A DNA stretch of 38,153 bases from a virus (Duplodnaviria; Caudoviricetes): IMG/VR virus record IMGVR_UViG_3300022853_000046, positions 1 to 38,153 of that record. One strand, given 5' to 3'. The position numbers and the translations under genes are program-made. Below the pieces are notes generated by a model. That model saw only the letters and a list, made by a program, of their open reading frames with translations, was not told where the DNA came from and did not search any database. Numbering within the stretch: the stretch's first letter is position 1; each line of letters begins with the position of its first letter. Below are positions 14,956-38,153 of this stretch, in pieces.

Positions 14956-14992
14956 ACTCGTTAATAATTTTTTACTAATTTAATTTAAGATA

Positions 14993-15997
14993 TTATATTA
15001 ACTTATCTTTCCACGTTTTTGGAGTATGCTCATTGATAATTTCTAGAGGTAAATGATATTGAAACTTTTTTGTGCCTCTGGTTCTAATGTATTCAGCAGT
15101 TTTTTTCACTGCTTGTCGCATATTAGTCGTGGTCTTGTAACCCAACAACTGTCTAGCTTTGTCTGACGAACAGGTTGCTAGTTTAACTTCTTTGGGTCTG
15201 TCTTTATGATGTATTGGATCTAGATTAATTCCTGTTTCGTTAGCACAGGCTTCTGCTAGTTCGTTTATGGTAACAGGTTCTTCGTCTGGACCAATGTTAA
15301 CTGTTTCGCCTATTACATTGTCTTGGAAAGCCAGAGCATTCAAACAATACAGACAATCGTCAATATAACTGAAACATCTTTTTTGCTTGCCATCTCCGTA
15401 GATGATAGGCTGTTTGCCTTGTAGCATTCTATTCAACATGATAGACATCACGTTCCTAAATGGATCGTCGTATTTCTGTCTTGGCCCAACAATATTGTGT
15501 GGCACAGCAATAACATATTCTACTCCATGTGTCTCACACAAATTTCTTAGAACATCCTCCCCAGCTTTCTTTGCAATACCGTAAGGATCTTGCGGACGAC
15601 ATTCGTAGGTTTCTTGGTACGGCATTTCTTCATGATGTCCGTATCTTGCCATTGACGAGCAGTACACAATACGTTTAACTTTGTTTCGTATGGCCGCTGT
15701 AATGGTTGTAACAGATGCTTCAAAAATATTTCTTGTGACTAGCACTGGTGAAAAAACAGATAGTCCTTCGTATGCAGTGGCCGCACAATGATACACAATG
15801 TCACAGCCTTCCATTGCTTTGGTTAAATTTTCTAGATCACAGCAGTCTACTTGATGAAACTCTACATCCTGTGGTATATTATCTGTGTAGCCACCGATCA
15901 TATTGTCATTACCCGCAACTGTGTGTCCACCAGCCAACATTAAATCAGCAAGATGTGAGCCTAAAAATCCGGCCACTCCTGTTATAAAAATTTTCAT
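14993..15997 (-). CDS. NAD-dependent nucleotide-sugar epimerase/dehydratase (extended SDR)
   Basis: ITGVAGFLGS (GxxGxxG), HCAA, SSMARYG, YGIAK (YxxxK), HNIVGPRQ, YGDGKQKRCF. Confidence 0.92.
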   Translation of the reverse strand: MKIFITGVAGFLGSHLADLMLAGGHTVAGNDNMIGGYTDNIPQDVEFHQVDCCDLENLTKAMEGCDIVYHCAATAYEGLSVFSPVLVTRNIFEASVTTITAAIRNKVKRIVYCSSMARYGHHEEMPYQETYECRPQDPYGIAKKAGEDVLRNLCETHGVEYVIAVPHNIVGPRQKYDDPFRNVMSIMLNRMLQGKQPIIYGDGKQKRCFSYIDDCLYCLNALAFQDNVIGETVNIGPDEEPVTINELAEACANETGINLDPIHHKDRPKEVKLATCSSDKARQLLGYKTTTNMRQAVKKTAEYIRTRGTKKFQYHLPLEIINEHTPKTWKDKLI

Positions 15998-16004
15998 ATA
16001 CGAG

Positions 16005-16010
16005 TATTTA
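16005..16010 (-). promoter_or_regulatory. Late promoter core TAAATA for the SDR epimerase
   Basis: TATTTA on + strand = TAAATA on - strand, 7 nt before ATG at 15997. Confidence 0.65.
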
Positions 16011-16016
16011 CTATGT

Positions 16017-16829
16017 TCATATTATGCCTATATCTTTCATTATACCCACAGCAGTACCGTTGGCAAATTCTTGTGGTGTAAACTGTTGATAGGCCAGACT
16101 GTTCAACCAACGTGAAGGATCGGTATAAAAAGGATTTTCAATCTCTGACAGATCCGTTGATCCCATAACCTTAGCAAAACTTTTGTAATGACAGAAAACA
16201 GGCACTCCGTTCACTGCGGCTTCCACGGCACTGATGGAGCAACTGGTAACACATGCCCAGGCATTTTCCAAATCCTCTTCTATGGATATATTTGCTACGG
16301 ACGGGCCAGATGTGCCATTGCCTCTGGGTTTTTTCCTTATTCGTATTGGCCTGTCTGTGTGTCTTTCAATATCTGTTATGGTGTTTACCAACCAATTAGT
16401 CTCATGTAGATAATTGTCCACCCCTGCCGAACTAGGACAGATTAAAATATACTCTCCTTTGTAATTAGGACGCTGTTTGATATCAATATTAAATCGTTTA
16501 AATCTATCTTCGGGGCAATCTTTTATGAACTGTGCGTGTATCCTGTTCTTACAAATACGCCAAAAATGATTGGTGTCTGTGAGGTCTGCATTGTTAAATC
16601 TTCCAAAATATGGAGTGTCTGTAAAATAATAATCCTGCTGTGCTAGTTCCAACTGGTGTATCAGTCGAGTGTTGTTGTTGACAAATCCCCAAAACATTGC
16701 AGGGGTGGTTGCTTCAGACGCACTGTTGTCTGCAACTGTTACTGCTTCTGGCCACGACTGTTTAATACCATCAAACACTCTCCAGCACTTGCTCTGTGGT
16801 TTATCTGTGGGTGCGTATATGGTTAACAT
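16017..16829 (-). CDS. KpsS/capsule-biosynthesis-like GT-B protein, paralog A
   Basis: IRIRKKP...AWACVTSCS..AVEA..NGVPVFC...IENP...LAYQQFT..E..NG, shared with three neighbours. Confidence 0.6.
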   Translation of the reverse strand: MLTIYAPTDKPQSKCWRVFDGIKQSWPEAVTVADNSASEATTPAMFWGFVNNNTRLIHQLELAQQDYYFTDTPYFGRFNNADLTDTNHFWRICKNRIHAQFIKDCPEDRFKRFNIDIKQRPNYKGEYILICPSSAGVDNYLHETNWLVNTITDIERHTDRPIRIRKKPRGNGTSGPSVANISIEEDLENAWACVTSCSISAVEAAVNGVPVFCHYKSFAKVMGSTDLSEIENPFYTDPSRWLNSLAYQQFTPQEFANGTAVGIMKDIGII

Positions 16830-16834
16830 AAAGT

Positions 16835-16863
16835 TTGAATATACTGTTATTTTATAGTATAAT
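16835..16863 (+). promoter_or_regulatory. Sigma70-type promoter for paralog B operon
   Basis: TTGAAT (16835-16840), 17 nt, TATAAT (16858-16863) in the divergent intergenic region. Confidence 0.65.
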
Positions 16864-16891
16864 TATAAGAAATACAATAACAAAATAGAAA

Positions 16892-17710
16892 ATGAACATA
16901 GCAGGCATACACACCACTAAACCACGAACACAGAGATATGTGGATGCATTTGTCAGAGGCACTCCTGGTCCTTATAAAATTTATGATTTTAAAACGATGC
17001 AGTCTTTACCAGAAGAGACTCTTGCATTCTATGGCATACTTGCAGGATCTGGAGAGGTATACAAATGGTGTGAGAAAGAAGGTAAAGATTTTTATTTTAT
17101 GGATCATGGATATTTTGGCAATGCTCACGATGCTCCGCACTGGTTAAGGGTCACAAAGAACGGGCACACACAGACCACGTTAAAGAATGTTCCCACAGAC
17201 AGATATGAAAAACATTTTAAAAGAGAACTTAAACCCTGGAACAAAACAGGAAAGGACATATTGTTTCTTCCTCCCACCATTGCTATCAGTAATTTTTTTA
17301 ATGCCACAGACTGGATTGCAGAGACTCTACGAACATTGTCAGCAGTCACGGATAGATTTGTGGACATCAGAGAAAAGCCGTACAATCCCAATATCTCCAC
17401 AGACCAATATGGTGCAACAGTGAAAGTGGACAGACCCACAGAGCAGAAAGGTCCGATCGATTGGTCTAGATATCATGCTGTGGTCACCTTTAACAGTAAT
17501 ACCATGATAGAAGCCCTGCACAACGGTGTGCCTGTGTTCTGTGGCACCCAGGCCAGTGCGGCCCTCCCAATTTCAGAAACTGATTTTACAAAAATAGAAA
17601 CGCCTAAATACGGAGACAGGATGGCACTGTTTTCAAGTCTAGCATACAGTAATTTTACCATGGCAGAAATGGCCAACGGTACAGCATGGAAAGCGTTAAA
17701 TGAAAGTTGA
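16892..17710 (+). CDS. KpsS-like GT-B protein, paralog B
   Basis: FMDHGYF, IREKP, HAVVTFNSNTMIEALHNGVPVFC, IETP..DR, LAYSNFT..E..NG. Confidence 0.6.
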   Translation: MNIAGIHTTKPRTQRYVDAFVRGTPGPYKIYDFKTMQSLPEETLAFYGILAGSGEVYKWCEKEGKDFYFMDHGYFGNAHDAPHWLRVTKNGHTQTTLKNVPTDRYEKHFKRELKPWNKTGKDILFLPPTIAISNFFNATDWIAETLRTLSAVTDRFVDIREKPYNPNISTDQYGATVKVDRPTEQKGPIDWSRYHAVVTFNSNTMIEALHNGVPVFCGTQASAALPISETDFTKIETPKYGDRMALFSSLAYSNFTMAEMANGTAWKALNES

Positions 17711-18683
17711 AATATTTAGAAGAACAGTTAAAGATCGTAAGAGAGGCAACAGTTATGATTTATTATATCAAATGGCTAAAGGAATCAAGGCGGCAGGAGA
17801 CGAACCGGTTATAGTTAATGAGAATAGAACCGGCCCCACAGTTGAGGGAGAAATGGAGCCAACAGCACCTATAGCAGTGATGTTTGGCTACGGAGGAACC
17901 AATCAACGACATCATACCAAAGGTAGAAGATTGGAGTTAGTTGAGAGAGCCAAAGCCAAGGGCACACATGTTATAACATTCGACGGAGGATTATTGTCTA
18001 GTTTTGGCAATGTGTCCACATCACCCGATCACCATTTTAGAGTTGCATTGAATACTCCTATGAACAATGGAGATTTTTTATCTGATAATTCGCCTTCGGA
18101 TAGATGGGAAATGATGAGAAAACTTTTTAAAGTTAGAAATGAAGAATGGAGAGTATCCAATCCTGAAGATCCTATACTGTTTGTTTTACAACCTAAAGAC
18201 AACTGGTCCATGAACGAGCTTGATCCCATTGAATGGTTTAATAATGTGTATAAAGTACTGAGACCGTTAACTAAAAGAAAATTTATTGTGCGGCCACATC
18301 CTAACAATGTAGATAATATATCGCAGAGGTTGCAAGAATTCCCTGCAGATGTGGAAGTGGCTATAGGAAAGAAACATTTTGTAGGCGATGATAAGAAATA
18401 CTATAGGTTTCATTTCCAAGAAGCGATTGCAAACTGCCACGCAGTGGTCAGTCATAATTCCACAGCCACTACAGACAGTTGCGTAAGAGGCATACCTACA
18501 TTTTGTACATCAGATCTTGCACTGTGTTGGCCTGTGGCAAATAAAGATTTAACAAAGATTGAATCTCCAGAGTATCCAGACAGGACTCAATGGTTACATG
18601 ACCTAGGATATAAAATGTGGAGTATTCGGGAAATTGAAGACGGCACTGTTTACAAAAGATTTAAATCAAAGCTAGGTCTTTAA
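17700..18683 (+). CDS. KpsS-like GT-B protein, paralog C
   Basis: FVLQPKDNWS, VRPHP, HAVVSHNST, GIPTFC, IESP..DR..WL. Confidence 0.62.
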   Translation: MKVEIFRRTVKDRKRGNSYDLLYQMAKGIKAAGDEPVIVNENRTGPTVEGEMEPTAPIAVMFGYGGTNQRHHTKGRRLELVERAKAKGTHVITFDGGLLSSFGNVSTSPDHHFRVALNTPMNNGDFLSDNSPSDRWEMMRKLFKVRNEEWRVSNPEDPILFVLQPKDNWSMNELDPIEWFNNVYKVLRPLTKRKFIVRPHPNNVDNISQRLQEFPADVEVAIGKKHFVGDDKKYYRFHFQEAIANCHAVVSHNSTATTDSCVRGIPTFCTSDLALCWPVANKDLTKIESPEYPDRTQWLHDLGYKMWSIREIEDGTVYKRFKSKLGL

Positions 18684-18988
18684 TGTGCGGCATATACGGA
18701 ATAACACAAAACAACGAAAAGTTTATTCAGTCGTATATCAATGCATGTTCTCACAGAGGCCCAGACGGTCAAGGTATATGGTCAAATGATAAAATCACGC
18801 TAGGACATAATTTACTTTCTATCACAGATCATCCAGAGAATTCAAAACAACCGTGGATAACTCCTCGTGGTAATATATTAATTTATAACGGAGAGATATT
18901 TAATTACCCAGAGCTTGTAAAGAAGTATACAGACTTCTGTCCTCGCACAACCTGTGACACAGAGATACTGGCGTGGGGACTGGATTAA
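18683..18988 (+). pseudogene. asnB: Truncated asparagine-synthetase-like (AsnB) Ntn glutamine amidotransferase, N-terminal 101 aa only
   Basis: MCGIYG, HRGPDG, LGHNLLSI, QP, YNGEIFNY, CDTEIL, then TAA; no synthetase domain follows. Confidence 0.75.
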
Positions 18989-19028
18989 AAAGTATAAGAT
19001 GTATTTTTAGATTAAATATAGACAATAA

Positions 19029-19937
19029 ATGAAAATCAAAGTCATAACATCATATAAGCCTGGAACTTGGAGCAAGTACGCACAACGATGTGTACAAAGC
19101 GTATTAGACCATTGGCCAGAAATTGCTGTTAATGTATATCACGAAGGTCCGTGTGAAGAAACTAACAAGTTTCATCCGAGATTAAAATGGATAGATCTAC
19201 ATCAGGTACAACCTGCTCTAATAGACTTTAAAGACAAGCACAAGAACGATCCTGTTGCTAATGGTGAGTTAGAGGAGATAGCAGGTGGGGTACGAAGACT
19301 TCCTGAGTTTAATGGCAATGATAAAAACAAAGGAACCTATCTGTTTGATGCTGTGAGATTTGCAAACAAAGTGTTCTGTGTCGTTCATGCTGTGAGAACA
19401 TCCGTAGAAAAAGAGTATGATTATGTGATTTGGTTAGATGCTGATACCTACTCTTTTCGTCCAATGCCTCGAAACTTTTTAGAATCCTTGTTACCCACAG
19501 ATTCCATGTTGACCTATTTGGGCAGAGAGAATCCTACAAAAAATGATGGTGGCAAATACCCCGAATGTGGATTTGTTGGCTATAATCTACGTCATCCACA
19601 GATACAGAATTTTATCAATGACTGGGAAAATTTATACACAACCAACGGTTTATTTAAATTGTTAGAATGGCACGACTCTTACGTGTTCTGGCATCTATCA
19701 AAAATATACAAACAACAACACAATATAAAAGTAAATGATATTGGTTACCGGAAAGGTGTGAAAGGTCATCACGTTTTTATTAACAGTGAACTTGGACTGT
19801 ACATGGATCACTTCAAAGGCAAAAGAAAAACCATGGGATCGTCAGCAAGAAACGATCTGAGACCTCCTAGAGATGATGCACCCGCAAATGTACTGGATGT
19901 AGACTATTGGAAGAAAGCCCCGAGTACCTGGAGATGA
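19029..19937 (+). CDS. GT-A fold glycosyltransferase
   Basis: DAVRFANKVF, WLDADTY (DxD), ECGFVGYN, WHDSYVF, DHFKGKRK; TAAATA at 19013. Confidence 0.7.
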   Translation: MKIKVITSYKPGTWSKYAQRCVQSVLDHWPEIAVNVYHEGPCEETNKFHPRLKWIDLHQVQPALIDFKDKHKNDPVANGELEEIAGGVRRLPEFNGNDKNKGTYLFDAVRFANKVFCVVHAVRTSVEKEYDYVIWLDADTYSFRPMPRNFLESLLPTDSMLTYLGRENPTKNDGGKYPECGFVGYNLRHPQIQNFINDWENLYTTNGLFKLLEWHDSYVFWHLSKIYKQQHNIKVNDIGYRKGVKGHHVFINSELGLYMDHFKGKRKTMGSSARNDLRPPRDDAPANVLDVDYWKKAPSTWR

Positions 19938-20809
19938 AGATAGCACTGTTTCCAGAGCTTGGCAGTCTTAACTCACAGCCGGTGTTTGCGGCCTTGATAA
20001 AACATCTACAATCCAAAGGTGAAAAAATAGTTCTTAACAAGTATGACAATACCTGTGATGTAGCTGTGATATGGTCTGTGCTATGGCAAGGCAGAATGGC
20101 TGGCAATAAAAAAGTTTGGGATGACTTTCGTTCCCAGGGCAAACCTGTGGTAGTGTTAGAAGTGGGAGGACTGCTGAGAAACACCACGTGGAAGATGGGC
20201 ATCAATGGCATTAACCGAGACGCCGACTTTGCCAATCAATCCTATGATGATAAAAGATGGCCGTTGTTTAAATTAGAGTTGAAGCCGTGGCAGAAGACCG
20301 GAAATGTCATTGTGATATGTGGACAGCACCATACCAGCGAACAGTGGAAAGGATTGCCCCAACCTAAAAACTGGTGCGAACAAAGGATTAAAGAAATAAG
20401 GAAGTACTGCGACAAACCCATAGTGATACGTCCTCATCCTAGAAATGTATTTGATTTTGACGAAACAAAATACCCTCACGTGAGAGTTAACCTTCCCAAG
20501 AAAGACTACAGCACATACGACGATACTGATTTTAAAAAAGTGCTACGTTCCACGTGGGCAGTGGTGAATCATTCCAGCAACCCGGCTATAGAATCAATAT
20601 TAAACGGTATACCTGTGTTTGTATCAGAATCTAGTCTGTGCTATGATGTGGGCAATCACACACTGGCAGACATTGCACAACCAGCTCAGCCAAACAGAGT
20701 AAATTGGGCACACCAATTAGCCTACACAGAGTGGACCACAGAAGAGATTGGTTTGGGGTTACCATGGAAGAGACTCAGAGAAAGACTGTTGGAGAAATAT
20801 ATCAAATGA
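19934..20809 (+). CDS. KpsS-like GT-B protein, paralog D
   Basis: Start at ATGA overlap 19934; LEVGGL.R, ICGQ, IRPHPR, WAVVNHSSNPAIESILNGIPVFV, LAYTEWT..EI. Confidence 0.62.
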   Translation: MKIALFPELGSLNSQPVFAALIKHLQSKGEKIVLNKYDNTCDVAVIWSVLWQGRMAGNKKVWDDFRSQGKPVVVLEVGGLLRNTTWKMGINGINRDADFANQSYDDKRWPLFKLELKPWQKTGNVIVICGQHHTSEQWKGLPQPKNWCEQRIKEIRKYCDKPIVIRPHPRNVFDFDETKYPHVRVNLPKKDYSTYDDTDFKKVLRSTWAVVNHSSNPAIESILNGIPVFVSESSLCYDVGNHTLADIAQPAQPNRVNWAHQLAYTEWTTEEIGLGLPWKRLRERLLEKYIK

Positions 20810-21552
20810 AGACTGTAAATTTATCAAATACAAATGTCGTTGAACCCATAGAGTGGACACCGTACACAGGCGAAACTGTGATAGTAAAAACTATCATACG
20901 TGGAGGTAAGAAAATACAAGAAACAAAATATTTTGAGGACACGGTTAAAGCAGTGCCCAGGGGCAATGCATACTGCATAGGTAATGGCCCATCCAGAAAA
21001 GGATTCGATCTTACATCATTGACAGAGTCTGGACAAACCTATGGATGTAATGCTCTGTACAGAGACTTTGTTCCTGACTATCTGTTCAGTGTGGACGCAC
21101 CAATGAGCAAAAAACTCAGCGAGGATAAAGTGTACGAAAAATGTGTTTGTTACGCTCCAACGTTGGAGGTCAACAGAAACAAAGGACTAACACTGATCCC
21201 TCGTAATCCTCATTACACCAGCGGTAATCAGGCGATATGGACTGCCACTGTGCATGGCCATAAAAACATCTACCTGATAGGATATGATTTTCGAGAGTAT
21301 GGTCCAGGGCAACTGAACAACATGTACCAGGACACAGAAAATTACGGAGAAAGAAACGGCGGTGATATTTTTGAAGCATGGTATTCTACCCTAAGACGAA
21401 TAATCAAACAAAGACCGTACTGTAATTTTACGCTCGTGCATGACAATCCTCCTGAATATTTTAATCATATGCAGACAGGAACAGACCTAAAGAATACTTT
21501 TAAGATGACCTACGCGGAGTTTAATAACAAAGTCCTAAACCAAGCCGGTTAA
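20806..21552 (+). CDS. Maf/DUF115 (MptE-like, GT42-related) putative glycosyltransferase
   Basis: Start at ATGA overlap 20806; CIGNGPSR, YGCNALYR, PDYLFSVD, TSG, IYLIGYDF. Confidence 0.6.
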   Translation: MKTVNLSNTNVVEPIEWTPYTGETVIVKTIIRGGKKIQETKYFEDTVKAVPRGNAYCIGNGPSRKGFDLTSLTESGQTYGCNALYRDFVPDYLFSVDAPMSKKLSEDKVYEKCVCYAPTLEVNRNKGLTLIPRNPHYTSGNQAIWTATVHGHKNIYLIGYDFREYGPGQLNNMYQDTENYGERNGGDIFEAWYSTLRRIIKQRPYCNFTLVHDNPPEYFNHMQTGTDLKNTFKMTYAEFNNKVLNQAG

Positions 21553-29091: not shown

Positions 29092-30108
29092 ATGAACTTA
29101 ATCCAGTCAACTATTCTGACTGCTTTGCCTGCAGGTAGAAAGAAAACCCCTTCTGGGTGGACTTCTTTTAATGCTCCCTGTTGCATACACAATGGCACCT
29201 CGGCCGACAAAAGGAAACGTGGTGGTATAATGACATCAGCAGATGGCACTGTGAGTTTCCACTGTTTCAACTGTAGTTTTAAAGCATCGTACATGGTTGG
29301 ACGCAGATTATCTCTTAAACTAAAACAGTTTATGGGATGGTTGGGTATTGCAGATGATGTGATAAAGAAACTGGCTCTAGAAGCCATGCGCCATGAAGAG
29401 ACCGGGACCGCATTTGAAAAGAAAAAATTTGTAGACTTCAAGAAAAAAACACTGCCAAAGAATTCACAACATCTGTCTTATTGGCTGGAAAAATATGTGG
29501 GCAACGATCTCACACAGCCTCAATATGAAAAGATAGATCAACTATTGAACTATCTCAAAAAAAGAGGCATTGGAGCAGAATGGTATGATTTTTACTACTC
29601 GCCTGTGCAAGAAGGAAATTTCAATAGACGATTATTAATACCATTTTACTGGCGAGGAGAAACAGTGGGGTACACAGGAAGACTGTTTGATACTCGCAAT
29701 AAAGAAATGAAATATTGGACAGAGACACAGCCTGGCTATGTGTTCAACATGGATGCTCAGGATTGGTCAAGGAAGTTCGTGATAGTAACAGAAGGACCAT
29801 TTGATGCAATTACCATATCTGGGGTGAGTATACTGGGATCAGAGATAAATGATACACAGCGAGAGCTGATAAACGGATTGAACAGACAAGTGATTGTTGT
29901 GCCGGATCAAGACGAAGCCGGACGGAAATTAATAGATCAAGCCATGGAATTTGGTTGGAGTGTGGCATTTCCAGAATGGGGTGTTGGGGTAACTGATGTG
30001 GCCGAGGCAGTACTAAAATACGGAAGACTGTTTACTATACAATCAATACTGAAAACAACAGAGACTAGTAAATTGAAGATAGGATTGACAAGGAAAATAC
30101 ATGGTTAG
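29092..30108 (+). CDS. DNA primase (DnaG/gp61-like)
   Basis: Zn-binding NAPCC...FHCFNC, YLKKRGI, RLLIPF, GYTGR, TOPRIM EGPFDA and PDQDEAG. Confidence 0.9.
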   Translation: MNLIQSTILTALPAGRKKTPSGWTSFNAPCCIHNGTSADKRKRGGIMTSADGTVSFHCFNCSFKASYMVGRRLSLKLKQFMGWLGIADDVIKKLALEAMRHEETGTAFEKKKFVDFKKKTLPKNSQHLSYWLEKYVGNDLTQPQYEKIDQLLNYLKKRGIGAEWYDFYYSPVQEGNFNRRLLIPFYWRGETVGYTGRLFDTRNKEMKYWTETQPGYVFNMDAQDWSRKFVIVTEGPFDAITISGVSILGSEINDTQRELINGLNRQVIVVPDQDEAGRKLIDQAMEFGWSVAFPEWGVGVTDVAEAVLKYGRLFTIQSILKTTETSKLKIGLTRKIHG

Positions 30109-30988
30109 TTTTCACATAGAACCAACTAGTAAATGTGCTTTAGAATGTACGTTGTGTGACCGAACTTGGTTTTACGAAACATTTAAAAAAAGAAACTTAC
30201 ACGAAATCAATGTGGATAACATTGTAAAGTTTATAGGAGTCAACGCAGATATAAATTTATGCGGCAACAACGGTGATCCAATATATCATTCTAAATTCTT
30301 AGCTAACAATTGTAGCCTGCACATACACACAAACGGGTCGGCAAAAACAAAAGCATGGTGGGAGAAGCTCAATAACATGTTAACAAATGATGATTCCATA
30401 GTATTTGCAATAGATGGATTAGCAGACACCAATCATTTATACAGAAAGAATGCTAAGTGGAATTCAATTATGACTGCTGTAACAGTATTAAAAACTAGAA
30501 ATTTTAAAATGGTATGGCAATTTATTCCTTTCAAACACAACCAACATCAGATAGCAGAAGCTATAAAAATGAGTAAAAAATTATCGTTTGACGAATTTAA
30601 ATTAACGAGAAGTGATAGATGGTTAGGCAATAAAGAATTAATGCCGGATAAACAATATATTGACCATTACTACGAGCATCAAAAAAAAGTATTGGTAGAT
30701 GCAACATATAAATCGAATATGTCTCCGTCTTGTCTAAAAAAAGGTATACCAGCATCTAGCTTATACATTGATGCCGAAGGAGACTTTTATCCGTGTTGTT
30801 GGATGGGTACATATCGATATAGATACAAATCGGTATTCTCACCAAAACAAAAATCATTTAACATAAGAGACAACACATTAACTCAAATACTTGAAAACAA
30901 CAGCATAAAAGAGTTTTTTGCCTCAACAAAACAATTTACTTCTGCTCATGAATGTTGTAAAATACAATGTGGAATAAGAAATGACTGA
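30101..30988 (+). CDS. Radical SAM protein with C-terminal SPASM/twitch domain
   Basis: EPTSKCALECTLC (CxxxCxxC), GNNGDP, HTNGS, FAIDG, IDAEGDFYPCC, CCKIQCG. Confidence 0.88.
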   Translation: MVSFHIEPTSKCALECTLCDRTWFYETFKKRNLHEINVDNIVKFIGVNADINLCGNNGDPIYHSKFLANNCSLHIHTNGSAKTKAWWEKLNNMLTNDDSIVFAIDGLADTNHLYRKNAKWNSIMTAVTVLKTRNFKMVWQFIPFKHNQHQIAEAIKMSKKLSFDEFKLTRSDRWLGNKELMPDKQYIDHYYEHQKKVLVDATYKSNMSPSCLKKGIPASSLYIDAEGDFYPCCWMGTYRYRYKSVFSPKQKSFNIRDNTLTQILENNSIKEFFASTKQFTSAHECCKIQCGIRND

Positions 30989-32420
30989 TTATACATTTGA
31001 CGTACAGAAACTATATTTAGAAATGATGATGGCAGATGCTGAATCATTTGCTCGAGCTCAGAATATATTTGATCCTGCTAGTTTTGACAGGAAATTACAG
31101 CCTATTGCAAAATTTATCAAGGACTATGTAGAAGAGTACAAAGTAATGCCTGAAGTAGATCAGGTTAATGCCCCTCATGATATTAAATTAAAAACTGCTC
31201 GAGAGATTGACCCTGCACACTTTAACTGGTTGTTGGACGAATTTGAAATGTTTTCTCGGCACAAAGCCATGGAGCGAGCAATATTAGAATCAGCTGACCT
31301 ACTAGAGCGTGGTGACTATGCGCCTGTGGAAGACAAGATCAAAGAAGCTGTGGGCATAAGTCTCACACGAGATCTAGGCACAGATTATTTTGAAGATCCT
31401 AAAGGCAGACTGGAACATCTTAAAAACTCCAATGGTCAAATCAGCACAGGCTGGGCATCTGTGGACAAGAAACTGTTTGGCGGATTCAACCGAGGCGAAC
31501 TTAATATTTTTGCAGGAGGATCAGGAGCAGGTAAATCGTTGTTCTTACAGAACCTTGCAGTAAACTGGTCGTTGGCAGGACTAAATGTGTGTTACGTATC
31601 TTTTGAATTAAGTGAAGCACTGGTAGCGATGAGATTAGACGCAATGATGTCCGGCGTGCCCACAAGAAAAATATTTCCAGAAATTGACAATGTAGAAATG
31701 AAAATTAAAATGCTTCATAAAAAATCAGGTAATCTACAGATAAAATATCTACCCAGTGGTAGCAATGTTAATGACATTAAAGCATATATTAAAGAGTTGG
31801 AGCTCAAGAACAAAAAGAAAATTGATTGTATTCTAATAGATTATTTGGATCTTATGATGCCCAAGTCTAAAAAGATTTCACCGGCAGATCTGTTCATCAA
31901 AGACAAGTATGTGTCTGAAGAGTTGAGAAACTACGGAGCAGAATCCAAGATGTTAATGGTCACAGCATCACAGTTGAACAGAGCATCTGTGGAAGAGATT
32001 GAGTTCGATCACTCGCATATATCAGGAGGATTGTCCAAAGTACAAACAGCAGACAACGTGATTGGTATCTTTACAAGTCGAGCAATGAAAGAACGAGGCA
32101 GATATCAAATACAGTTCATGAAGACTAGAAGCAGTTCTGGTGTTGGACAAAAGGTGGATTTGGAATTTGATTTAGACACTTTAAGAATTAGGAATTTAGA
32201 CGAAGAAGCAGATTCTGGACAGCACTATAAAAAAACTGCTACAGCCATGTATGATTCCTTAAAAACAAAGAGTAAGGTTTCCACAGACACACCCAAGGAT
32301 GCTCGCAAAGAAGAAATTGATCCTCGTAAAGGTGACGACTTTGGCAAAGTAAAAGCCACAGTTGAAGGCGGCAAACTACGACAGTTGTTGAACGAATTAC
32401 ACTCAGACGAAGAACAATGA
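30981..32420 (+). CDS. Replicative helicase (DnaB/gp41-like)
   Basis: ISTGW, GGSGAGKS, SFELSE, IDYLDLM, TASQLNR, MKTRS. Confidence 0.93.
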   Translation: MTDYTFDVQKLYLEMMMADAESFARAQNIFDPASFDRKLQPIAKFIKDYVEEYKVMPEVDQVNAPHDIKLKTAREIDPAHFNWLLDEFEMFSRHKAMERAILESADLLERGDYAPVEDKIKEAVGISLTRDLGTDYFEDPKGRLEHLKNSNGQISTGWASVDKKLFGGFNRGELNIFAGGSGAGKSLFLQNLAVNWSLAGLNVCYVSFELSEALVAMRLDAMMSGVPTRKIFPEIDNVEMKIKMLHKKSGNLQIKYLPSGSNVNDIKAYIKELELKNKKKIDCILIDYLDLMMPKSKKISPADLFIKDKYVSEELRNYGAESKMLMVTASQLNRASVEEIEFDHSHISGGLSKVQTADNVIGIFTSRAMKERGRYQIQFMKTRSSSGVGQKVDLEFDLDTLRIRNLDEEADSGQHYKKTATAMYDSLKTKSKVSTDTPKDARKEEIDPRKGDDFGKVKATVEGGKLRQLLNELHSDEEQ

Positions 32421-33055
32421 TGCAGGTTGAACTGGTAGATAAAATGGGGTCAGACCTTTCTGTAGTAAATGCGGCTAGGGTTTCTTATGCAAAATTCAAA
32501 GACGAGTTTGAACCACGAGATGAAAAACTTATTAAGTTTCTAGCAGAACACAATCATTGGTCACCATTTGCTCATGCAAGTCTACAGTTTCGAATCAAAG
32601 CACCTGTGTTCGTTGCTCGACAGCTGGTCAAACATCAAGTGGGTCTTGTGTGGAATGAAGTTTCTAGAAGATATGTTTCCAATGATCCAGAACTGTACGA
32701 GACAAAAGAATGGAGAGGTCGACCAGAAGATTCCAAACAAGGATCCGCAGGCATTGTGGAGTTGGATCTCACAGATCAACACATGTTGGACACAGTAACG
32801 CAACAGTGCTTGATTATCTACAACACAATGATTTCAAAAGGCATTGCACCGGAACAAGCAAGGAGTGTGTTGCCACAAAGCATGATGACTGAATGGATAT
32901 GGTCTGGAACACTATACGCATTTGCTCGAGTGTGCAATCTAAGATGTGCCAAAGACACACAACAAGAAACTCAACAGGTAGCTGATCAGATCAGAGACTT
33001 GTGTGCTGAACAGTTTCCCATCAGTTGGAAATACCTGCATGGCCTACATAGTTAA
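32417..33055 (+). CDS. thyX: Flavin-dependent thymidylate synthase
   Basis: [24 protein letters not shown]...[27 protein letters not shown]. Confidence 0.95.
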
Positions 33056-33353
33056 CGACAAGTGCGTGATGTGCAAACACACATCGTGTGTTGAGGTGTG
33101 TCCTGTTGACTGTTTCTATGAAGGTGAGAACATGCTGGTTATCAATCCTGACGAGTGCATCGACTGTGGCGTGTGTGAACCCGAGTGTCCTGTTGATGCT
33201 ATAGAACCTATGGACGCAGGTGATTGGGTGGACTTCAACAAGAAATATGCTGAACAATGGCCTGTGATCACAAAGAAAAAAGATCCGTTGCCTGACCATG
33301 AACAGCACACAGACGAAGCAGACAAGATAGAGAAGTACTTCAAAGGTCGTTAA
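33039..33353 (+). CDS. fdxA: 7Fe ferredoxin (FdxA type)
   Basis: Start ATG 33039: [55 protein letters not shown]. Confidence 0.93.
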
Positions 33354-33430
33354 CAGCGGAGCGCCAATATTTTTTAGAAAGCGTCAGCGTAAATTTTCTA
33401 AACAGCGATAGCGTACACAGCGTAAGATTT
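33354..33430 (+). repeat. Intergenic array of seven AGCG boxes with about 25-nt periodicity
   Basis: AGCG at 33355, 33360, 33380, 33386, 33404, 33410, 33419, separated by A/T tracts; inverted repeat TTTAGAAA (33373-33380) / TTTCTAAA (33395-33402). Confidence 0.8.
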
Positions 33431-33451
33431 TTGACTCTCACTGGTTAAAGT

Positions 33452-33457
33452 TAAATA
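33452..33457 (+). promoter_or_regulatory. Late promoter core TAAATA heading the RLP operon
   Basis: 8 nt before ATG 33466, no SD. Confidence 0.65.
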
Positions 33458-33465
33458 CACATATA

Positions 33466-33903
33466 ATGATATACATTGCTCACCGAGGGAACACCAGCGG
33501 TATAGACACTGCACAGGAAAACACAGTTTCATACATTACTCAAGCAATTGCAGACGGATTTGATGTGGAAATTGATATTTGCAAATGGGACGGAGAATAT
33601 TTCTATCTAGGACACGATGTGCCAGGAGAAGCAGTAACACCCGGGTGGTTACAGTCTAATCCCTTGTGGGTACACGCAAAGGACCACACAGCACTACATG
33701 AACTCATTAAAAAGAACATACACTGTTTTTGGCATGACAAAGACAGGTACACCATCACAAGTCGTGGGTACATCTGGGCATATCCGGGAGAACCGGGTGG
33801 CGAACGATGCATATGTGTGCATCCGGAACAGAGAGATGACTGGAAACAGTTTGCAGGCATCTGCGGAGATAATGTCAAACAATACAAGGAGCAACCACAA
33901 TGA
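33466..33903 (+). CDS. Short GDPD/PI-PLC-like phosphodiesterase
   Basis: IAHRGN, QENT, GFDVEIDI, LGHD, WVHAK, GYIWAYPG, GICGD. Confidence 0.75.
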   Translation: MIYIAHRGNTSGIDTAQENTVSYITQAIADGFDVEIDICKWDGEYFYLGHDVPGEAVTPGWLQSNPLWVHAKDHTALHELIKKNIHCFWHDKDRYTITSRGYIWAYPGEPGGERCICVHPEQRDDWKQFAGICGDNVKQYKEQPQ

Positions 33904-34619
33904 AAATAATAGTACCAATGGCAGGAGCTGGATCTAGATTTGAAAAGGCCGGCTACACATTTCCCAAACCTTTGATAGAAGTCAAAGGACAACCCATGAT
34001 TGCTAAAGTGGTGGAGAATTTAAACCTACAAGGACAGTACATCTTCCTGGTACAGAAGTCACACTACGAGAAATACGATCTACAACGACTGTTGACGTTG
34101 ATTGCACCTGGCTGTGCTATTGTGCAAATAGACGGCTTAACCGAGGGAGCGGCCTGCACTATATTACAGGCTCGGGAATTGATCGACAACAACGAACCTT
34201 TGATAATCTCAAATTCAGATCAATGGATAGAATGGAACAGCACTGAAACAATTGGTTCATTCAATCACGAAGACTCAGATGGAGGCATATTGACTTTCAA
34301 CAGTGTGCATCCAAAACACAGTTTTGCAAAGATAGACGAGCATGGATATGTCACAGAGGTTGCTGAGAAGAATCCCATATCAAACAATGCCACAGTGGGC
34401 ATCTATCATTGGAAACGAGGATCAGACTTTGTGAAATACGCTGATCAAATGATTGCAAAGGACATCAGAACCAACAATGAATTTTATGTGTGTCCTGTGT
34501 ACAATGAAGCTGTGCAGGATGGTAAAAAAATAAAAGTCAGTCAGGTGGATGCAATGTGGGGTATGGGCACACCGGAGGAACTCAACAACTTCTTGGCCAA
34601 CCACCGGCAAGACAAATAA
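33900..34619 (+). CDS. Sugar-phosphate nucleotidyltransferase (GT-A/NTP transferase)
   Basis: PMAGAGSRF...PKPLIEV, TEGAACT, NSDQ, VAEKNPIS, NEFYVCPVYN, MGTPEEL. Confidence 0.88.
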   Translation: MKIIVPMAGAGSRFEKAGYTFPKPLIEVKGQPMIAKVVENLNLQGQYIFLVQKSHYEKYDLQRLLTLIAPGCAIVQIDGLTEGAACTILQARELIDNNEPLIISNSDQWIEWNSTETIGSFNHEDSDGGILTFNSVHPKHSFAKIDEHGYVTEVAEKNPISNNATVGIYHWKRGSDFVKYADQMIAKDIRTNNEFYVCPVYNEAVQDGKKIKVSQVDAMWGMGTPEELNNFLANHRQDK

Positions 34620-35806
34620 TGTTATTCTACAACACAGATATAGATCGTGAAAAATATTTCATAGCCACCTATGACATGGCCAGCAGTGCCAATCTCAAGG
34701 AGGCCGCGTGGGCACTTGCGATCGGTCAGAGCGTGGGCAATCCGAGTGTGCGTAATAGATGGGAGACAGACGAGCTGTTTGAAAACCACAGTTGTGTGAT
34801 AGTTGGAGAGAAAACAAAACTGGAAAAACAAACACAAGGACTTGTAAAGATTGCATTTCCTGTGGTCAACACAGATTGGGCAACAGACGGAATGGCTCAC
34901 ATGCTGTGCCAGCTGATGGGAGGACACATAGATATTGATATTATCACAAAATGCAGATTGGTAGGATTGGACCTACCTAGAACAGTGACCAAACATTTCC
35001 TTGGACCCAAGTTTGGTCTATCTGGAATAAGAGAATTTACAGGACAGCACGGCAAGCCTTTGCTCGGCGGTATAGTCAAACCCAAGATAGGGATAACTCC
35101 AACTATTTTATTGGAGATGGTCAAACAGATGGTGGACGGAGGAGTGGACTTTATCAAAGAAGACGAGATAATGGTCAACCCTGTGATCTGTCCATTAGAC
35201 CAACGTGTGGAACTGATCGCAAATTATCTGGCCAAACAGAGTCGTAAAATCGTGTTCTGTCACACTATCAACTGTGACCCACACGTGCTGACCGATCGTG
35301 TGAAGCGTGTTCACGAGCTGGGCGGCAACGGAGTACACATCAACGTGTTCAGTGGATATGGCGCTTACAACAGTATCAGGAAATTAGATCTACCATTGTT
35401 CCTGCATTACCAGAGCAGTGGTGCAAAAGTTACAACAGATGTGAATCACCGGTTCAGTATCAGTTGGCCAGTGATGTGTCAGCTAGCCACACTGATGGGT
35501 GTGGACACCATTCAAACCGGAATGGTAGGCGGCTACAGCAACGACAATCCTGAAGAGATACTAAAGTGTTTAGAAATACTGAGAGCCGGAAATACTGCAC
35601 CAGCACTGAGTTGCGGATTTAATCCAGGGCTAGTACAGAAGGTTAATAGTATAGCAGGCGTAGATTATCTAGCGAACGCTGGCGGAGCCATACACGGACA
35701 CCCAGGAGGCACAGTTGCAGGTGCTCGAGCAATGCGACAAGCAGTGGACAAGAATCACGGCATTGAATACGAGCAGGCTATTGCCAAATGGGGTTTCACA
35801 AAATGA
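34619..35806 (+). CDS. RuBisCO-like protein (RLP, form IV-type)
   Basis: Start at TAATG overlap 34619; GPKFG, KPLLGGIVKPKIG, GGVDFIKEDE, PALSCG, GGAIHGHPGG; several carboxylase-essential residues replaced. Confidence 0.9.
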   Translation: MLFYNTDIDREKYFIATYDMASSANLKEAAWALAIGQSVGNPSVRNRWETDELFENHSCVIVGEKTKLEKQTQGLVKIAFPVVNTDWATDGMAHMLCQLMGGHIDIDIITKCRLVGLDLPRTVTKHFLGPKFGLSGIREFTGQHGKPLLGGIVKPKIGITPTILLEMVKQMVDGGVDFIKEDEIMVNPVICPLDQRVELIANYLAKQSRKIVFCHTINCDPHVLTDRVKRVHELGGNGVHINVFSGYGAYNSIRKLDLPLFLHYQSSGAKVTTDVNHRFSISWPVMCQLATLMGVDTIQTGMVGGYSNDNPEEILKCLEILRAGNTAPALSCGFNPGLVQKVNSIAGVDYLANAGGAIHGHPGGTVAGARAMRQAVDKNHGIEYEQAIAKWGFTK

Positions 35807-36516
35807 TTCGTGCAGACGAAGTTGCTGTCTGCGTATCTGGTTTAGCCAGAGAAGGCTACAAAGAAGCAATAGAAAGAGCCAAAAAAGTTTTTCCATACGA
35901 TTTTTTTTATATGCAGTGGACAGGGTATCCGCCGCTTGATGTGACTGACTGTTATTTTTTTAATGAACCACAGTATGACTATCACAATCTACTAGATACA
36001 GAATACAAACCAGATTGTAAGATATGGAGAAGATACACAAAAACCGCAGATGGAAAAATATTTCGAAAACCCGGATTACTAGAAAAAACTAAAAATAATT
36101 CAAAACAAATTTTAGCTCATTATTGGTTAACAAATGCACTGCCTAAAAAATACAAAACCATAATAAAGTTGAGATACGATAGTTTATTATCGACCAAAAT
36201 TGATTTCACTCCATTAATAGAGAAAGCAGTTACGGGAACAGTGATCGGTATAGCCGGAAGTGCGCCGGGCAAAGATGTTGATTCTCCGTTACACACGCAC
36301 ACTTACAAAGATTGTGAAAAATGCACAGGGCCGTACCTGTGGGATCATATTATAATTCATCCTAGATACAAATTAAAAAATGTTGAAAAACTGTTTAAGG
36401 AAAAAAATTTAGTAGGAGCAGAATGGGGGTGGTATCAAATATTACACCACCAATGGGCAGATAACAATTATTTAAATGTCACAGGCGGTAATCTTCTAAT
36501 CGGACATCAAACATGA
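35803..36516 (+). CDS. Putative glycosyltransferase (AxCxSGxxR ... RxD type)
   Basis: Start at ATGA overlap 35803; VAVCVSGLAR, KQILAH, IIKLRYD, LWDH, GAE. Confidence 0.5.
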   Translation: MIRADEVAVCVSGLAREGYKEAIERAKKVFPYDFFYMQWTGYPPLDVTDCYFFNEPQYDYHNLLDTEYKPDCKIWRRYTKTADGKIFRKPGLLEKTKNNSKQILAHYWLTNALPKKYKTIIKLRYDSLLSTKIDFTPLIEKAVTGTVIGIAGSAPGKDVDSPLHTHTYKDCEKCTGPYLWDHIIIHPRYKLKNVEKLFKEKNLVGAEWGWYQILHHQWADNNYLNVTGGNLLIGHQT

Positions 36517-37154
36517 AAACAAAAGATTATCAAGGATGGAACATATTAGAAACTGAAAAAAACTTCTATAATAATTTTAATGAGTACAGTAAACTAGGTG
36601 AAATAATAGAAACACATGTCAAACAAAAAGACTGTGTTTTACAAGTTGGCGCTAATTATGGATTTGAGACTAAATTTCTCGCAGAAAAATTCAACACAGT
36701 ACATACTTTTGATTTTGATAATGATGTATCTACCTGTTTCACAGCAAATATAAAAAAACACAATATTGAAAATATTGTACAACATCTTTACGGATTAGGA
36801 AATACTGAACAACTAGTGGCTATTTCTAAAAACGAGAACTCTGTAGCAACACATATTGACCTATTAGGAAATGATAAAAAATATCAAATCAAAAGACTCG
36901 ACGATTTGAATGTTGAAAAGGTTGATATGATAATTATTGATACTGAAGGATATGAATACTTTGTGTTATCAGGGGGAGAACATACTATAAAAAAACACAT
37001 GCCTGTGATGATTGTCGAGTTCCATAAGCGAGAGTTGACAGAAAAATTTTTTAATTACGAAAGTAAAAAAACAGACAAATACTTAAAAAAACTAGGATAC
37101 AAATATATTTGTAACACAACTAAAAATGACAGACTATACGTTCCGGCAGACTAA
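36513..37154 (+). CDS. FkbM-family SAM-dependent methyltransferase
   Basis: QVGANYG, YGLGN, RLDDL, IDTEGYE..VLSG, PVMIVE, LGY. Confidence 0.8.
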   Translation: MKTKDYQGWNILETEKNFYNNFNEYSKLGEIIETHVKQKDCVLQVGANYGFETKFLAEKFNTVHTFDFDNDVSTCFTANIKKHNIENIVQHLYGLGNTEQLVAISKNENSVATHIDLLGNDKKYQIKRLDDLNVEKVDMIIIDTEGYEYFVLSGGEHTIKKHMPVMIVEFHKRELTEKFFNYESKKTDKYLKKLGYKYICNTTKNDRLYVPAD

Positions 37155-37886
37155 ATGAGAAATTGCATCGTTCAATATTTTATAGATCCGAGATTATATT
37201 CAGATCCCGAGTACAACAATCTCAGCAACGAGCAGGATAATTTTGCCAAACTCAGCGAGCAGAGTTTTAGAGCATATGCTGAAAGGTACAATTGTGACTA
37301 CCAATTAATAACCCAACCAAAATTAAAATATAGACATCCAACATTTGAAAGATTTGATCTGTGGCTGGATGCCACGTGGTGGGAACGTTATGATCAGATA
37401 CTGTATGTAGACTCAGATGTTTTTGCCATGCCCGGTGCACCGGATGTGTTTGCACAGTATAATAATATAGAAACTCTTAAAGTGTGCGAATCAAATAAAT
37501 TCCAAAATGCTTCTTGCCAAGAACACTACGACCAACTACAGCAAGGATTGGTTACCAACACCGACATTGAAATTATTAAGCAACGAGGATTCCAGCCTGG
37601 AGTGTTTATACTAAACAAGCACGTGGTTGAGAAAACTAAAAAGTGGATTGAACAATATCAAACGTTTGACACACACGACGGAGATATATTGTTGTGGGCA
37701 GTGTGTAACAGTGCTGTGGGGATTGAACGACTGAGCTGGAAGTTTAATTATAAAAGAGCTTACTTTAGCGACGCACCAAAAATATATTTTTTTCATGCCG
37801 CGGGCAGAAAAAAAACTGTGGATCATACAAAACAACGAATATTAAGTTTCCTTAAACGCAACGGTATCGAGCTATCTAACAAATAG
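37155..37886 (+). CDS. GT8-like glycosyltransferase
   Basis: YAERYNCDY, YDQILYVDSDVF (DxD), FQPGVFILN, KFN, FFHAAG. Confidence 0.72.
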   Translation: MRNCIVQYFIDPRLYSDPEYNNLSNEQDNFAKLSEQSFRAYAERYNCDYQLITQPKLKYRHPTFERFDLWLDATWWERYDQILYVDSDVFAMPGAPDVFAQYNNIETLKVCESNKFQNASCQEHYDQLQQGLVTNTDIEIIKQRGFQPGVFILNKHVVEKTKKWIEQYQTFDTHDGDILLWAVCNSAVGIERLSWKFNYKRAYFSDAPKIYFFHAAGRKKTVDHTKQRILSFLKRNGIELSNK

Positions 37887-38153
37887 ATAATCGTGTGGCT
37901 GTCCTAATTTGTAATAGACGTCAACACATTTATAACCAATGTTTTCTAATAAGTCTTTGGCCGTAAAATCTCCACGGTTTATTTCACATAATATAACTGG
38001 ATTATTTTTTTCTATAGTTTGCATGCCGCCTAGTATAACCTTGGGCTCGTATCCTTCCACATCCATCTTAATAAAGTCAATGCCTTCAAAGAGACCAAAA
38101 GAGTCTAGTGTATTAATTGGAACTTTCATTGTAGAGTTTCCGTGCGGCACATC
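37872..38153 (-). CDS. FkbM-family methyltransferase, C-terminal part (5'-truncated by window edge)
   Basis: TLDSF..IDFIKMDVEGYEPKVILG...PVILCE...IGY; convergent with the RLP operon. Confidence 0.8.
   Translation of the reverse strand, partial: DVPHGNSTMKVPINTLDSFGLFEGIDFIKMDVEGYEPKVILGGMQTIEKNNPVILCEINRGDFTAKDLLENIGYKCVDVYYKLGQPHDYLFVR

Follow-up and report, generated by a model that had tools for sequence, protein, structure and literature searches.

A phage-rich clade of RuBisCO-like proteins tied to a sugar nucleotidyltransferase, and a possible ribulose 1-phosphate route to activated ketopentoses

What does a RuBisCO-like protein (RLP) do in a phage operon, among genes for glycan synthesis? 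To our knowledge, the RLPs whose function can be named all act in salvage or catabolism. We here analyse an RLP gene from a PA5oct-like phage record in IMG/VR, of which the stretch of 38,153 nt is called the window. The gene lies in a run of six coupled genes downstream of a TAAATA box (33452..37886, Table 1). A first-pass annotation had proposed that the RLP rearranges a sugar phosphate into a branched or keto sugar, which is then activated by a nucleotidyltransferase (NT), transferred and O-methylated on a phage glycan.

The cassette and its genes

All five gene junctions that had been read from the sequence are present (ATGA at 33900, TAATG at 34619, ATGA at 35803, ATGA at 36513 and TAA-ATG at 37155). 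The claimed box ahead of the operon is likewise confirmed, as TAAATA is found 4–13 nt 5' of 11 of the 51 ORF starts compared to 0.16 expected. These ORFs include tail-tube, terminase and virion genes. The overall count of the motif is not raised (24 found, 38 expected), and scans for sigma-70 promoters and terminators gave only matches at chance level. Among the 14 related loci printed, TAAATA precedes the phosphodiesterase in nine, one being a near-identical copy. The box is probably a late promoter that yields a near-leaderless transcript. The IMG/VR record is about 10% complete, thus other pathway partners may lie elsewhere. Pieces that are 93–98% alike to the three core genes were also observed in two marine RNA-library runs; the contigs come from relatives and are no evidence of transcription.

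Table 1. Promoter box and genes of the cassette (positions in the window)
Feature	Position	Strand	Description
TAAATA box	33452..33457	+	8 nt upstream of first ATG
Miniature GDPD-fold phosphodiesterase	33466..33903	+	145 aa; core partner
Sugar-phosphate nucleotidyltransferase (NT), 4EVW-like family	33900..34619	+	239 aa; PF00483 E 3.8e-11; core partner
Form IV-like RuBisCO-like protein (RLP)	34619..35806	+	395 aa, no internal stops; PF00016 E 1.3e-35
237-aa protein, DUF7796-like lead, possible transferase	35803..36516	+	variable partner
FkbM-family methyltransferase	36513..37154	+	213 aa, 29% GC; PF05050 E 7.6e-14, TIGR01444 above cutoff; variable partner
Putative GT-A glycosyltransferase with DxD	37155..37886	+	243 aa; phrog_28746; variable partner

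Profiles and models agree with the earlier labels of the phosphodiesterase, NT, RLP and FkbM genes, whereas the transferase labels of the two remaining ORFs are weak. The phosphodiesterase has no Pfam match and no Foldseek match at E 0.001; a wide structure search succeeded, with the top 22 rows being mostly GDPD or phospholipase D (GDPD 1O1Z: Z 10.2, rmsd 3.2, 136 aligned), and a profile match was found to GDPD 7E0V (E 3.2e-5). Residues H6-R7, E35-x-D37 and H50-D51 are invariant in 25/25 aligned relatives. The protein thus has the barrel fold, the two histidines and the ExD of GDPDs, but neither their full length (~230 aa) nor their PF03009 score. The NT matches PDB 4EVW (E 6.5e-20). For ORF 35803, which matches neither Pfam nor NCBIfam, the sole lead is an Atlas cluster that is 27% DUF7796. 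ORF 37155 has no Pfam match and one spurious PDB match; its DxD and HxxGxxK motifs, which we take to be GT8-like, are found in 5/5 aligned sequences.

An intact RLP without the CO2-fixing residues

The RLP is an intact RuBisCO-like protein that lacks the residues for CO2 fixation. Along its entire length, the predicted model (pLDDT 87.1) matches RuBisCO and RLP structures (Foldseek TMq 0.86 to type III), and the best match is the enolase MtnW (2OEM: Z 42.0, rmsd 2.8, 367 aligned), with which others are tied within about 2 Z units. It comprises the N-terminal domain and the alpha/beta barrel of the large-subunit superfamily, with equivalents of K175, K201, D203 and E204 (spinach numbering). Retained residues are K154, K156, K180, D182, E183, H263, S331, G333, G355 and G356, so that the Mg/carbamate and P1 sites are kept. 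The loop-6 lysine, E60, N123 and the P2 site are lost: compared to the Cupriavidus form I enzyme, the carboxylation marks Lys334, Glu60 and Asn123 of forms I–III are replaced by Y306, G36 and G102, and their P2 phosphate site R295/H298/H327 by Y264, S267 and Q299.

The same pattern holds across the clade to which the protein belongs (50 rows, branch support 100). All retained residues are found in 50/50 rows except H263 (43/50), and an Arg at the R295 position or a Lys at the K334 position occurs in 0/50. Judged from these residues, the active site would suit a monophosphate. Two site variants are found, H103/S266/Q299 (22/50) and Q103/K266/H299 (21/50).

The clade is divergent and phage-rich, stands apart from other RLPs and includes a Beckwithbacteria RLP (L065, 50%). 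In these features, it fits the 'form IV-like' RLPs from phages and Beckwithbacteria, whose function was left open with metabolic augmentation suggested (Jaffe, Castelle, Dupont, Banfield 2019, PMC6389311). Those proteins also form a divergent, phage-dominated clade with partly retained active-site residues. Thus, a phage-encoded RLP as such is already known. As to gene context, neither 'nucleotidyltransferase' nor 'glycosyl' appears in the main text of that paper, nor 'nucleotidyl' or 'glycosyl' in its supplement text, although its gene-context Fig. S1 may show these neighbours. In a search of mainly open-access literature, this study was the only one found on an RLP as a phage auxiliary metabolic gene, and no paper was found that links an RLP to an NT or to glycan or O-antigen synthesis. 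Among 7999 candidates scored, at least 2285 proteins match at E 0.001, a total that includes more distant RLPs; the best 120 of these have 76–96% identity. None of 50,697 cultured phage records contains an RLP match, whereas the NT is found in 22.

Partners of the RLP and alternative front ends

To characterise the gene neighbourhoods, we counted neighbours within 3 kb in 68 clade loci, which had been dereplicated and had at least 2.5 kb of sequence on either side of the RLP. The NT accompanies the RLP in 65/68 loci, compared to 0/62 loci of more distant RLPs. The mini-phosphodiesterase or a longer related one is present in 51/68 and absent in the other 17, and a cupin, which the window's cassette lacks, in 49/68. 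Furthermore, two proteins are RLP-NT-cupin fusions (P0121 and P0122). The conserved unit is thus RLP, NT and mini-phosphodiesterase, usually with the cupin. Cellular members of the clade sit among genes for O-antigen ligase, flippase, GT2/GT4/GT9, WavE and epimerase. This neighbourhood search supports the predicted tie of the RLP to the NT and the HRG phosphodiesterase in glycan loci. Homologs might also have lain mostly in mtn or catabolic operons, but no such link was found: mtn families are absent from 56 recurring-neighbour representatives, except a class II aldolase in 2 loci, and from 88 cellular neighbours.

The last three genes of the cassette are variable. The ORF 35803 subfamily is found in 7/68 loci (30/68 with a broader DUF7796-like model), FkbM in 12/68 and the GT8-like gene of the ORF 37155 type in 3/68. 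O-methylation by FkbM, as first proposed, thus falls outside the conserved pathway.

The NT also occurs with other front ends. Among 80 viral NT-anchored loci, not dereplicated, 16 have only the RLP, 60 only a HAD protein, 4 neither and 0 both. HAD-fused NTs are 58–70% identical to the window's NT. The HAD is nearest to beta-phosphoglucomutases (E 3.5e-26; TIGR02009), a family that shifts phosphate between the ends of a sugar. The exclusion is not absolute, as a HAD lies within 3 kb in 4/68 RLP loci; among five HAD-bearing RLP loci listed, a second NT lies next to the HAD in three, and in one (L046) cupin and RLP occur together with a HAD-NT fusion. The loci are related, and the 16/60/0 split corresponds to 2 changes on the NT tree and thus rests on few events. 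The AU test does not reject a tree in which all RLP-linked NTs form a single clade (p 0.24), so that the swap may have run in either direction. A nested position of the window's NT inside the HAD-linked NTs failed the AU test; by identity, it remains closer to them. The RLPs paired with the window-type NT, a group chosen once both trees were available, do not form one clade (AU p 5e-9). Thus, the NT type that is fed is the same for both site variants.

A third front end is found in five loci, where a distant NT-NT protein and an HR phosphodiesterase occur with genes like phosphoribulokinase (PRK07429, 205.5 bits, below the curated cutoff of 236) and RuBP 5-phosphatase (NF053830, E 2.2e-49, 168.2 bits, below the curated cutoff of 330). 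By their sequence matches, the two would yield ribulose 1-phosphate (Ru1P). Neither gene occurs in 56 viral, 18 cellular or the 68 dereplicated RLP loci. The five PRK-type loci have tandem NT domains, only ~30% identical to the window's NT, alongside GtrA, GT2 and a membrane domain; a class II aldolase-like gene, also present there, could alter the sugar before activation. The haloarchaeal RuBP 5-phosphatase family makes Ru1P (Sato 2022, PMC9700705), the product proposed below for the RLP; a relative accompanies PRK, NT-NT and phosphodiesterase in the five loci. Unlike the RLP, the haloarchaeal enzyme has a HAD fold and serves a catabolic nucleoside pathway.

Proposed pathway and competing readings

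Taken together, the role of the RLP is very probably biosynthetic. The partners, the fusions and the lack of mtn genes support the first-pass proposal of a biosynthetic RLP that feeds an NT; judged from the alternative front ends, a plain ketopentose 1-phosphate is favoured over the branched sugar that it allowed. The RLP likely acts as the first enzyme of a sugar-donor pathway, and its near-exclusion with the HAD and with PRK plus phosphatase suggests that it may make Ru1P. Our preferred reading, which we hold tentatively, is that it is a 1,3-isomerase from pentulose 5-phosphate to Ru1P that supplies an activated ketopentose for a glycan. Xylulose or ribulose 5-phosphate would bind so that its phosphate occupies the P1 site, and Mg on the carbamylated K180 would allow two successive 1,2-proton transfers, so that the carbonyl would end up next to the phosphorylated carbon. 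The NT would convert Ru1P to NDP-1-ribulose and pull the equilibrium. The phosphodiesterase might cut NDP-1-ribulose via a cyclic 1,2-phosphate, so that the anomeric C2 would keep the phosphate and could be re-activated to give a ketofuranosyl donor; we regard this step as doubtful. DUF7796/WavE-like or GT neighbours would then attach the unit to a late-infection glycan, most likely on the virion. The cupin is given no role in this model.

A precedent for this chemistry is the MTRu-1P 1,3-isomerase of R. rubrum (Imker 2008, as summarised in the review PMC6302742). The proposed reaction would be that of the R. rubrum RLP (MTRu-1P to 1-methylthio-xylulose/ribulose 5-P) in reverse, with OH replacing S-methyl. 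Compared by reaction, the R. rubrum enzyme likewise links ketose 1-phosphate and ketose 5-phosphate by carbonyl migration, and a cupin lies downstream. According to the same review, its substrate is a methylthio sugar and its pathway MTA salvage towards isoprenoids, whereas the window's RLP has NT, phosphodiesterase and glycan partners and would carry the reverse flux. The R. rubrum type of context is not found at the RLP loci, where families of MTA phosphorylase or MTR-1P isomerase are absent among recurring neighbours; the cupin found in 49/68 loci is a small one.

The same enediolate chemistry could serve another sugar or step, with the RLP as C3 epimerase or as isomerase of a four- or six-carbon ketose or polyol phosphate and the cupin completing the isomerisation. 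This would explain the frequent cupin, draws on the same partner evidence, and is in line with a Rhizobium plasmid on which a HAD-NT cassette adjoins catabolic genes of erythritol type. The two site variants may also mean different substrates; however, both feed one NT type, and Ru1P is indicated by the only front end whose product can be named. We consider this alternative unlikely.

Rather improbable is a branched or carboxylated sugar acid, made by transcarboxylation or rearrangement as in apiose RLPs and then activated and methylated. RLPs do such chemistry (review PMC6302742), and methyltransferases are common at the loci (Methyltransf_24-like in 26/68 and a C-methyltransferase family in 7 loci, besides FkbM). 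OiaX and the four-carbon-acid RLPs share the carbamate site and a QS after the E60 position with the window's RLP, but they retain R295 and K334, have kinase or reductase neighbours and are catabolic. The window's RLP scores 142.8 of the 700 required for this family, its clade has neither residue, and no kinase, reductase or dehydrogenase recurs as a close neighbour in the 68 loci. Moreover, neither a phosphomutase-type HAD nor PRK plus phosphatase could substitute for a rearrangement of the carbon skeleton.

We give slightly less credence still to a scheme in which the RLP makes a ketose 1-phosphate and the NDP-1-sugar itself donates a phosphodiester-linked unit, in the style of CDP-ribitol, with the phosphodiesterase trimming or recycling. 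A single NT in 60/68 loci and the loci that lack a phosphodiesterase agree with this scheme, whereas the tandem NTs of the PRK-type loci with GtrA, GT2 and membrane domain suggest an anomerically activated donor, and no reductase is among the core partners.

The lysine at the N123 position is the general base of the MtnW enolase (IV-YkrW). It is present in an annotated MtnW (L222) and is Gly in 50/50 clade rows, which argues against an auxiliary metabolic role of the RLP in methionine salvage or sulfur recycling, as MtnW enolase or MTRu-1P isomerase, with its place in a glycan island due to chance. The RLP resembles MtnW in its fold, in the G at the E60 position, in the missing P2 arginine and in the HGHP motif, and R. 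rubrum, as noted, also pairs its isomerase with a cupin. However, it is 28% identical to MtnW, keeps K177, scores far below the MtnW cutoffs (129.9 of 513.6 and 160.3 of 409 bits), and in two proteins an RLP is fused to the NT. Such a role is very improbable.

A host fragment mis-assembled onto the phage contig, which the GC contents could suggest (42.5–46.5% in the three core genes, 29–38% in the last three), can be dismissed, since three IMG/VR contigs match the primase-to-RLP stretch at 99.8%, contigs of two runs not flagged as possible sources span 32330–34974 and 31492–34557, and related phages share the helicase-cassette order. A role in DNA modification was also considered and fits poorly with the late promoter; RuBisCO is not mentioned in passages of a bioRxiv paper on arabinosylated cytosine.

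The proposed route may be a candidate source of ketopentose donors. Xylulofuranose occurs in the E. coli O-antigens O95 and O97, in whose clusters donor genes are not listed (review PMC7685785), and no L-xylulose donor gene is named in the Y. enterocolitica O:10 cluster (PMC11380512). These strains would be candidate users. A related NT gene had no match in the E. coli genomes. The PRK cassette is found in 2/5426 of them, both on plasmids and without a given serotype, thus giving no link to O95 or O97. In the literature search, no paper was found on a route combining xylulose, capsular polysaccharide, NT and phosphodiesterase.

If our preferred reading holds, this widespread clade, whose role was previously unassigned, gains a proposed substrate, product and partner. 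More tentatively still, it may be the first branch of the RuBisCO superfamily with a biosynthetic role. It would then provide a one-enzyme shortcut from ketoses of the pentose phosphate pathway to Ru1P, interchangeable with PRK plus RuBP 5-phosphatase or with a phosphomutase-type HAD, at the head of an undescribed NT/phosphodiesterase route to activated ketopentoses for the virion glycans of phages and the surface glycans of SAR11, CPR bacteria and DPANN archaea. This bears on what the RuBisCO fold did beyond carbon fixation.

Conserved partners of the RLP

The RuBisCO-like protein (RLP) of the window stays below all NCBIfam cutoffs (highest for type III, 172.5 vs 497) and shares 24–33% identity with RLPs and RuBisCOs outside its own clade; its predicted fold is that of a complete RuBisCO large subunit. 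In a quick tree, the 50 clade sequences form one side of a branch with a support of 100, and they stem from phages, SAR11, Beckwithbacteria and other CPR, Nanoarchaeota/Pacearchaeota, Elusimicrobia and Nonomuraea. The clade itself is already published: it agrees with the 'form IV-like' clade in Jaffe et al. 2019 (PMC6389311), a paper that leaves its function open. In one protein (P0123), a 330-aa domain without Pfam match is fused to the RLP. In locus L048, many known genes including RLP and helicase are fragmented under table 11; the locus may belong to a phage in which a stop codon is reassigned.

To describe the gene neighbourhood, we collected 163 clade loci from viral, genome and metagenome scans (20 of 64 parts for the metagenome scan; best 80 matches each for the genome, nucleotidyltransferase (NT) and metagenome scans), reduced these to 127 at 95% identity and retained 68 that are flanked on each side by 2.5 kb or more. 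Partner families were detected within 3 kb of the RLP with HMMs built from the clade loci. We found an NT in 65 of the 68 loci, a phosphodiesterase in 51 and a cupin in 49, followed by DUF7796-like (30), Methyltransf_24-like (26) and FkbM (12) genes, whereas the types of ORF 35803 and ORF 37155 occur in only seven and three loci, respectively. We thus conclude that the core consists of RLP, NT and phosphodiesterase, usually with a cupin, and that the cassette of the window lacks the cupin and ends in three exchangeable genes. RLP, NT and cupin are fused in two proteins, and this NT was found beside none of the more distant RLPs (0/62 loci).

The first-pass annotation had considered that close homologues might lie in mtn operons without a link to NTs; this is not what we observe, given the NT frequency and the absence of any mtn family among 56 scanned representatives of the recurring neighbours (of 110 clusters, core families and obvious phage genes left out). 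Glycosyltransferases, methyltransferases and NDP-sugar enzymes make up most of these neighbours. The cellular RLP loci are O-antigen or surface-glycan clusters, except for the less clear L063 and L074 and for L067, probably a phage contig, which is filed under a Saprospirales MAG and encodes gp32-like and helicase proteins. Within the family of one SAR11 carrier, two of 301 genomes contain the RLP, which agrees with the expectation for a variable surface-glycan gene. Near the RLP cassette of L019, L023 and L035 lies a second module of an APH-like kinase and an NT-phosphatase fusion, which presumably resembles capsule fructosylation genes.

The cassette within the phage record

The window is a linear virus record of 38,153 bases (completeness ~10%, CheckV) that encodes tail-tube, head-closure, terminase, UvsX/UvsY, helicase, primase and ThyX proteins; its terminase is 55% identical to those of the Pseudomonas jumbo phages PA5oct and Paride. 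Among 24 runs listed, 22 that are labelled salt lake metagenome contain half or more of the stretch; eight are possibly the source and the rest possibly one campaign. The six ORFs with five coupled junctions described earlier are present as stated. That the cassette is a host fragment mis-assembled onto the phage, as had also been considered, is excluded by 99.8% matches spanning 9.4–11.5 kb and by contigs from two further runs that bridge the region.

The motif TAAATA is not over-represented in the window (24 observed vs 38 expected); it lies 4–13 nt upstream of 11 of the 51 ORF starts (0.16 expected), virion genes among these. It precedes the phosphodiesterase in nine of 14 related loci listed, and in the remaining five the cassette directly follows the helicase. 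Judged from sequence, the cassette transcript would be late and near-leaderless. As relatives have contigs that skip ~32418–33329, ThyX-ferredoxin is a variable insert ahead of the cassette.

Additional features of the window
Feature	Position	Strand	Remark
Second glycan island	14272–21552		TAAATA boxes ahead of 15997 and 19029
DxD protein	14272		second glycan island
NAD-dependent epimerase	14993–15997	minus	second glycan island
Four unannotated proteins	16017, 16892, 17700, 19907		second glycan island; common C-terminal 'GVPVF'-type motif
Glutamine amidotransferase	18683–18988		101-aa N-terminal domain only, PHROG profile of family 579 long; looks truncated
Weak sialyltransferase-like PHROG match	20704		second glycan island
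Radical SAM/SPASM gene	30101–30988		21 nt fewer than near-identical contigs and runs X9, X11, frame kept
FdxA ferredoxin	33027–33353		NCBIfam score 144 vs cutoff 135
Second FkbM gene	37872–38153	minus	convergent with operon, runs past window end; counterpart in locus L001 followed by GT61 gene

Interchange of the front end

In an NT-anchored viral search (best 80 loci without dereplication), 16 loci contain only the RLP (including three near-copies of the window), 60 only a HAD, none both and four neither. In most cases the HAD forms a fusion with the NT; its nearest family is that of the beta-phosphoglucomutases. This split goes back to few events. The NT of the window is 58–70% identical to HAD-fused NTs vs 33–43% to 29 cupin-type RLP-linked NTs, and it groups among the HAD-linked NTs in the tree, a placement not secured by the AU test (p 0.24). 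Its RLP shares 81% identity with one cupin-type phage RLP and 58% with one that has the same NT type. A single clade of RLPs paired with the window-type NT is rejected (AU p 5e-9); thus, RLP and NT reassort. A complete Pelagibacter chromosome (L059, 2758–11194) has, within 9 kb, a phosphodiesterase-NT-RLP cassette as well as a HAD-NT fusion. On a Rhizobium plasmid (L216, 1–8487), a cassette of HAD, NT-NT and phosphodiesterase directly follows erythritol-type catabolic genes.

A third front end occurs in three plasmids and two IMG/VR records, where NT-NT and HR phosphodiesterase are accompanied by a phosphoribulokinase (PRK)-like domain, a HAD with RuBP 5-phosphatase as best family and a class II aldolase-like gene. 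All three plasmid records with this HAD contain the NT, and GtrA and GT2 are annotated on them. The RuBP 5-phosphatase family produces ribulose 1-phosphate (Ru1P), according to Sato 2022 (PMC9700705). PRK-like and RuBP 5-phosphatase-like genes were found in none of the RLP loci examined.

Residues of the RLP and its proposed reaction

We aligned the 50 dereplicated clade sequences with annotated form I, MtnW, OiaX and four-carbon-acid RLPs; the equivalents are given in spinach numbering. The equivalents of K175, K177, K201, D203, E204, S379, G381, G403 and G404 are kept in all 50 and that of H294 in 43, and the clade substitutes E60 by Gly, N123 by Gly, R295 by Tyr/Phe/Leu, H298 by Ser and K334 by Tyr. 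Invariants peculiar to the clade are a GQSxGNPxxR loop, D105, H240, N242, Q265 and C332; the MtnW base is absent from these 50 sequences. Such a protein is predicted to be incapable of carboxylation by the standard mechanism and appears suited to enediolate chemistry with a polar-tailed sugar monophosphate. In 49 of the 50, a His occupies RLP residue 103 or 299 (103/266/299 combinations: H/S/Q 22, Q/K/H 21, H/K/Q 5, H/K/H 1, Q/S/Q 1), possibly a single acid-base His contributed by either domain.

PRK and 5-phosphatase together would convert Ru5P to Ru1P, and with a mutase-type HAD a single step could suffice. An RLP can achieve the equivalent, as that of R. rubrum turns MTRu-1P into 1-methylthio-xylulose 5-P and -ribulose 5-P (review PMC6302742). 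Reversed and with OH replacing S-methyl, that reaction would be Xu5P/Ru5P to Ru1P; it requires the P1 phosphate site and a metal but no P2 site, and the RLP residues agree. By analogy, the RLP may make Ru1P from Xu5P/Ru5P, which we propose tentatively and at slightly less than an even chance. Several observations speak against Ru1P: the PRK-type NTs are only ~30% identical to that of the window and the PRK-type family scores are below cutoffs, the aldolase-like gene of these loci may change the sugar, the cupin has no explanation, and L046 holds both a HAD-NT fusion and an RLP. A phosphate migration by the phosphodiesterase at a later step is rather unlikely. Irrespective of the product, a biosynthetic role of some kind, as the first-pass annotation had suggested, is very probable.

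Our literature search, which did not extend to Fig. S1 of Jaffe et al. 2019, found no link of the RLP clade to nucleotide-sugar genes. New here are the exchange among three front ends and, tentatively, a substrate and product named for the RLP.
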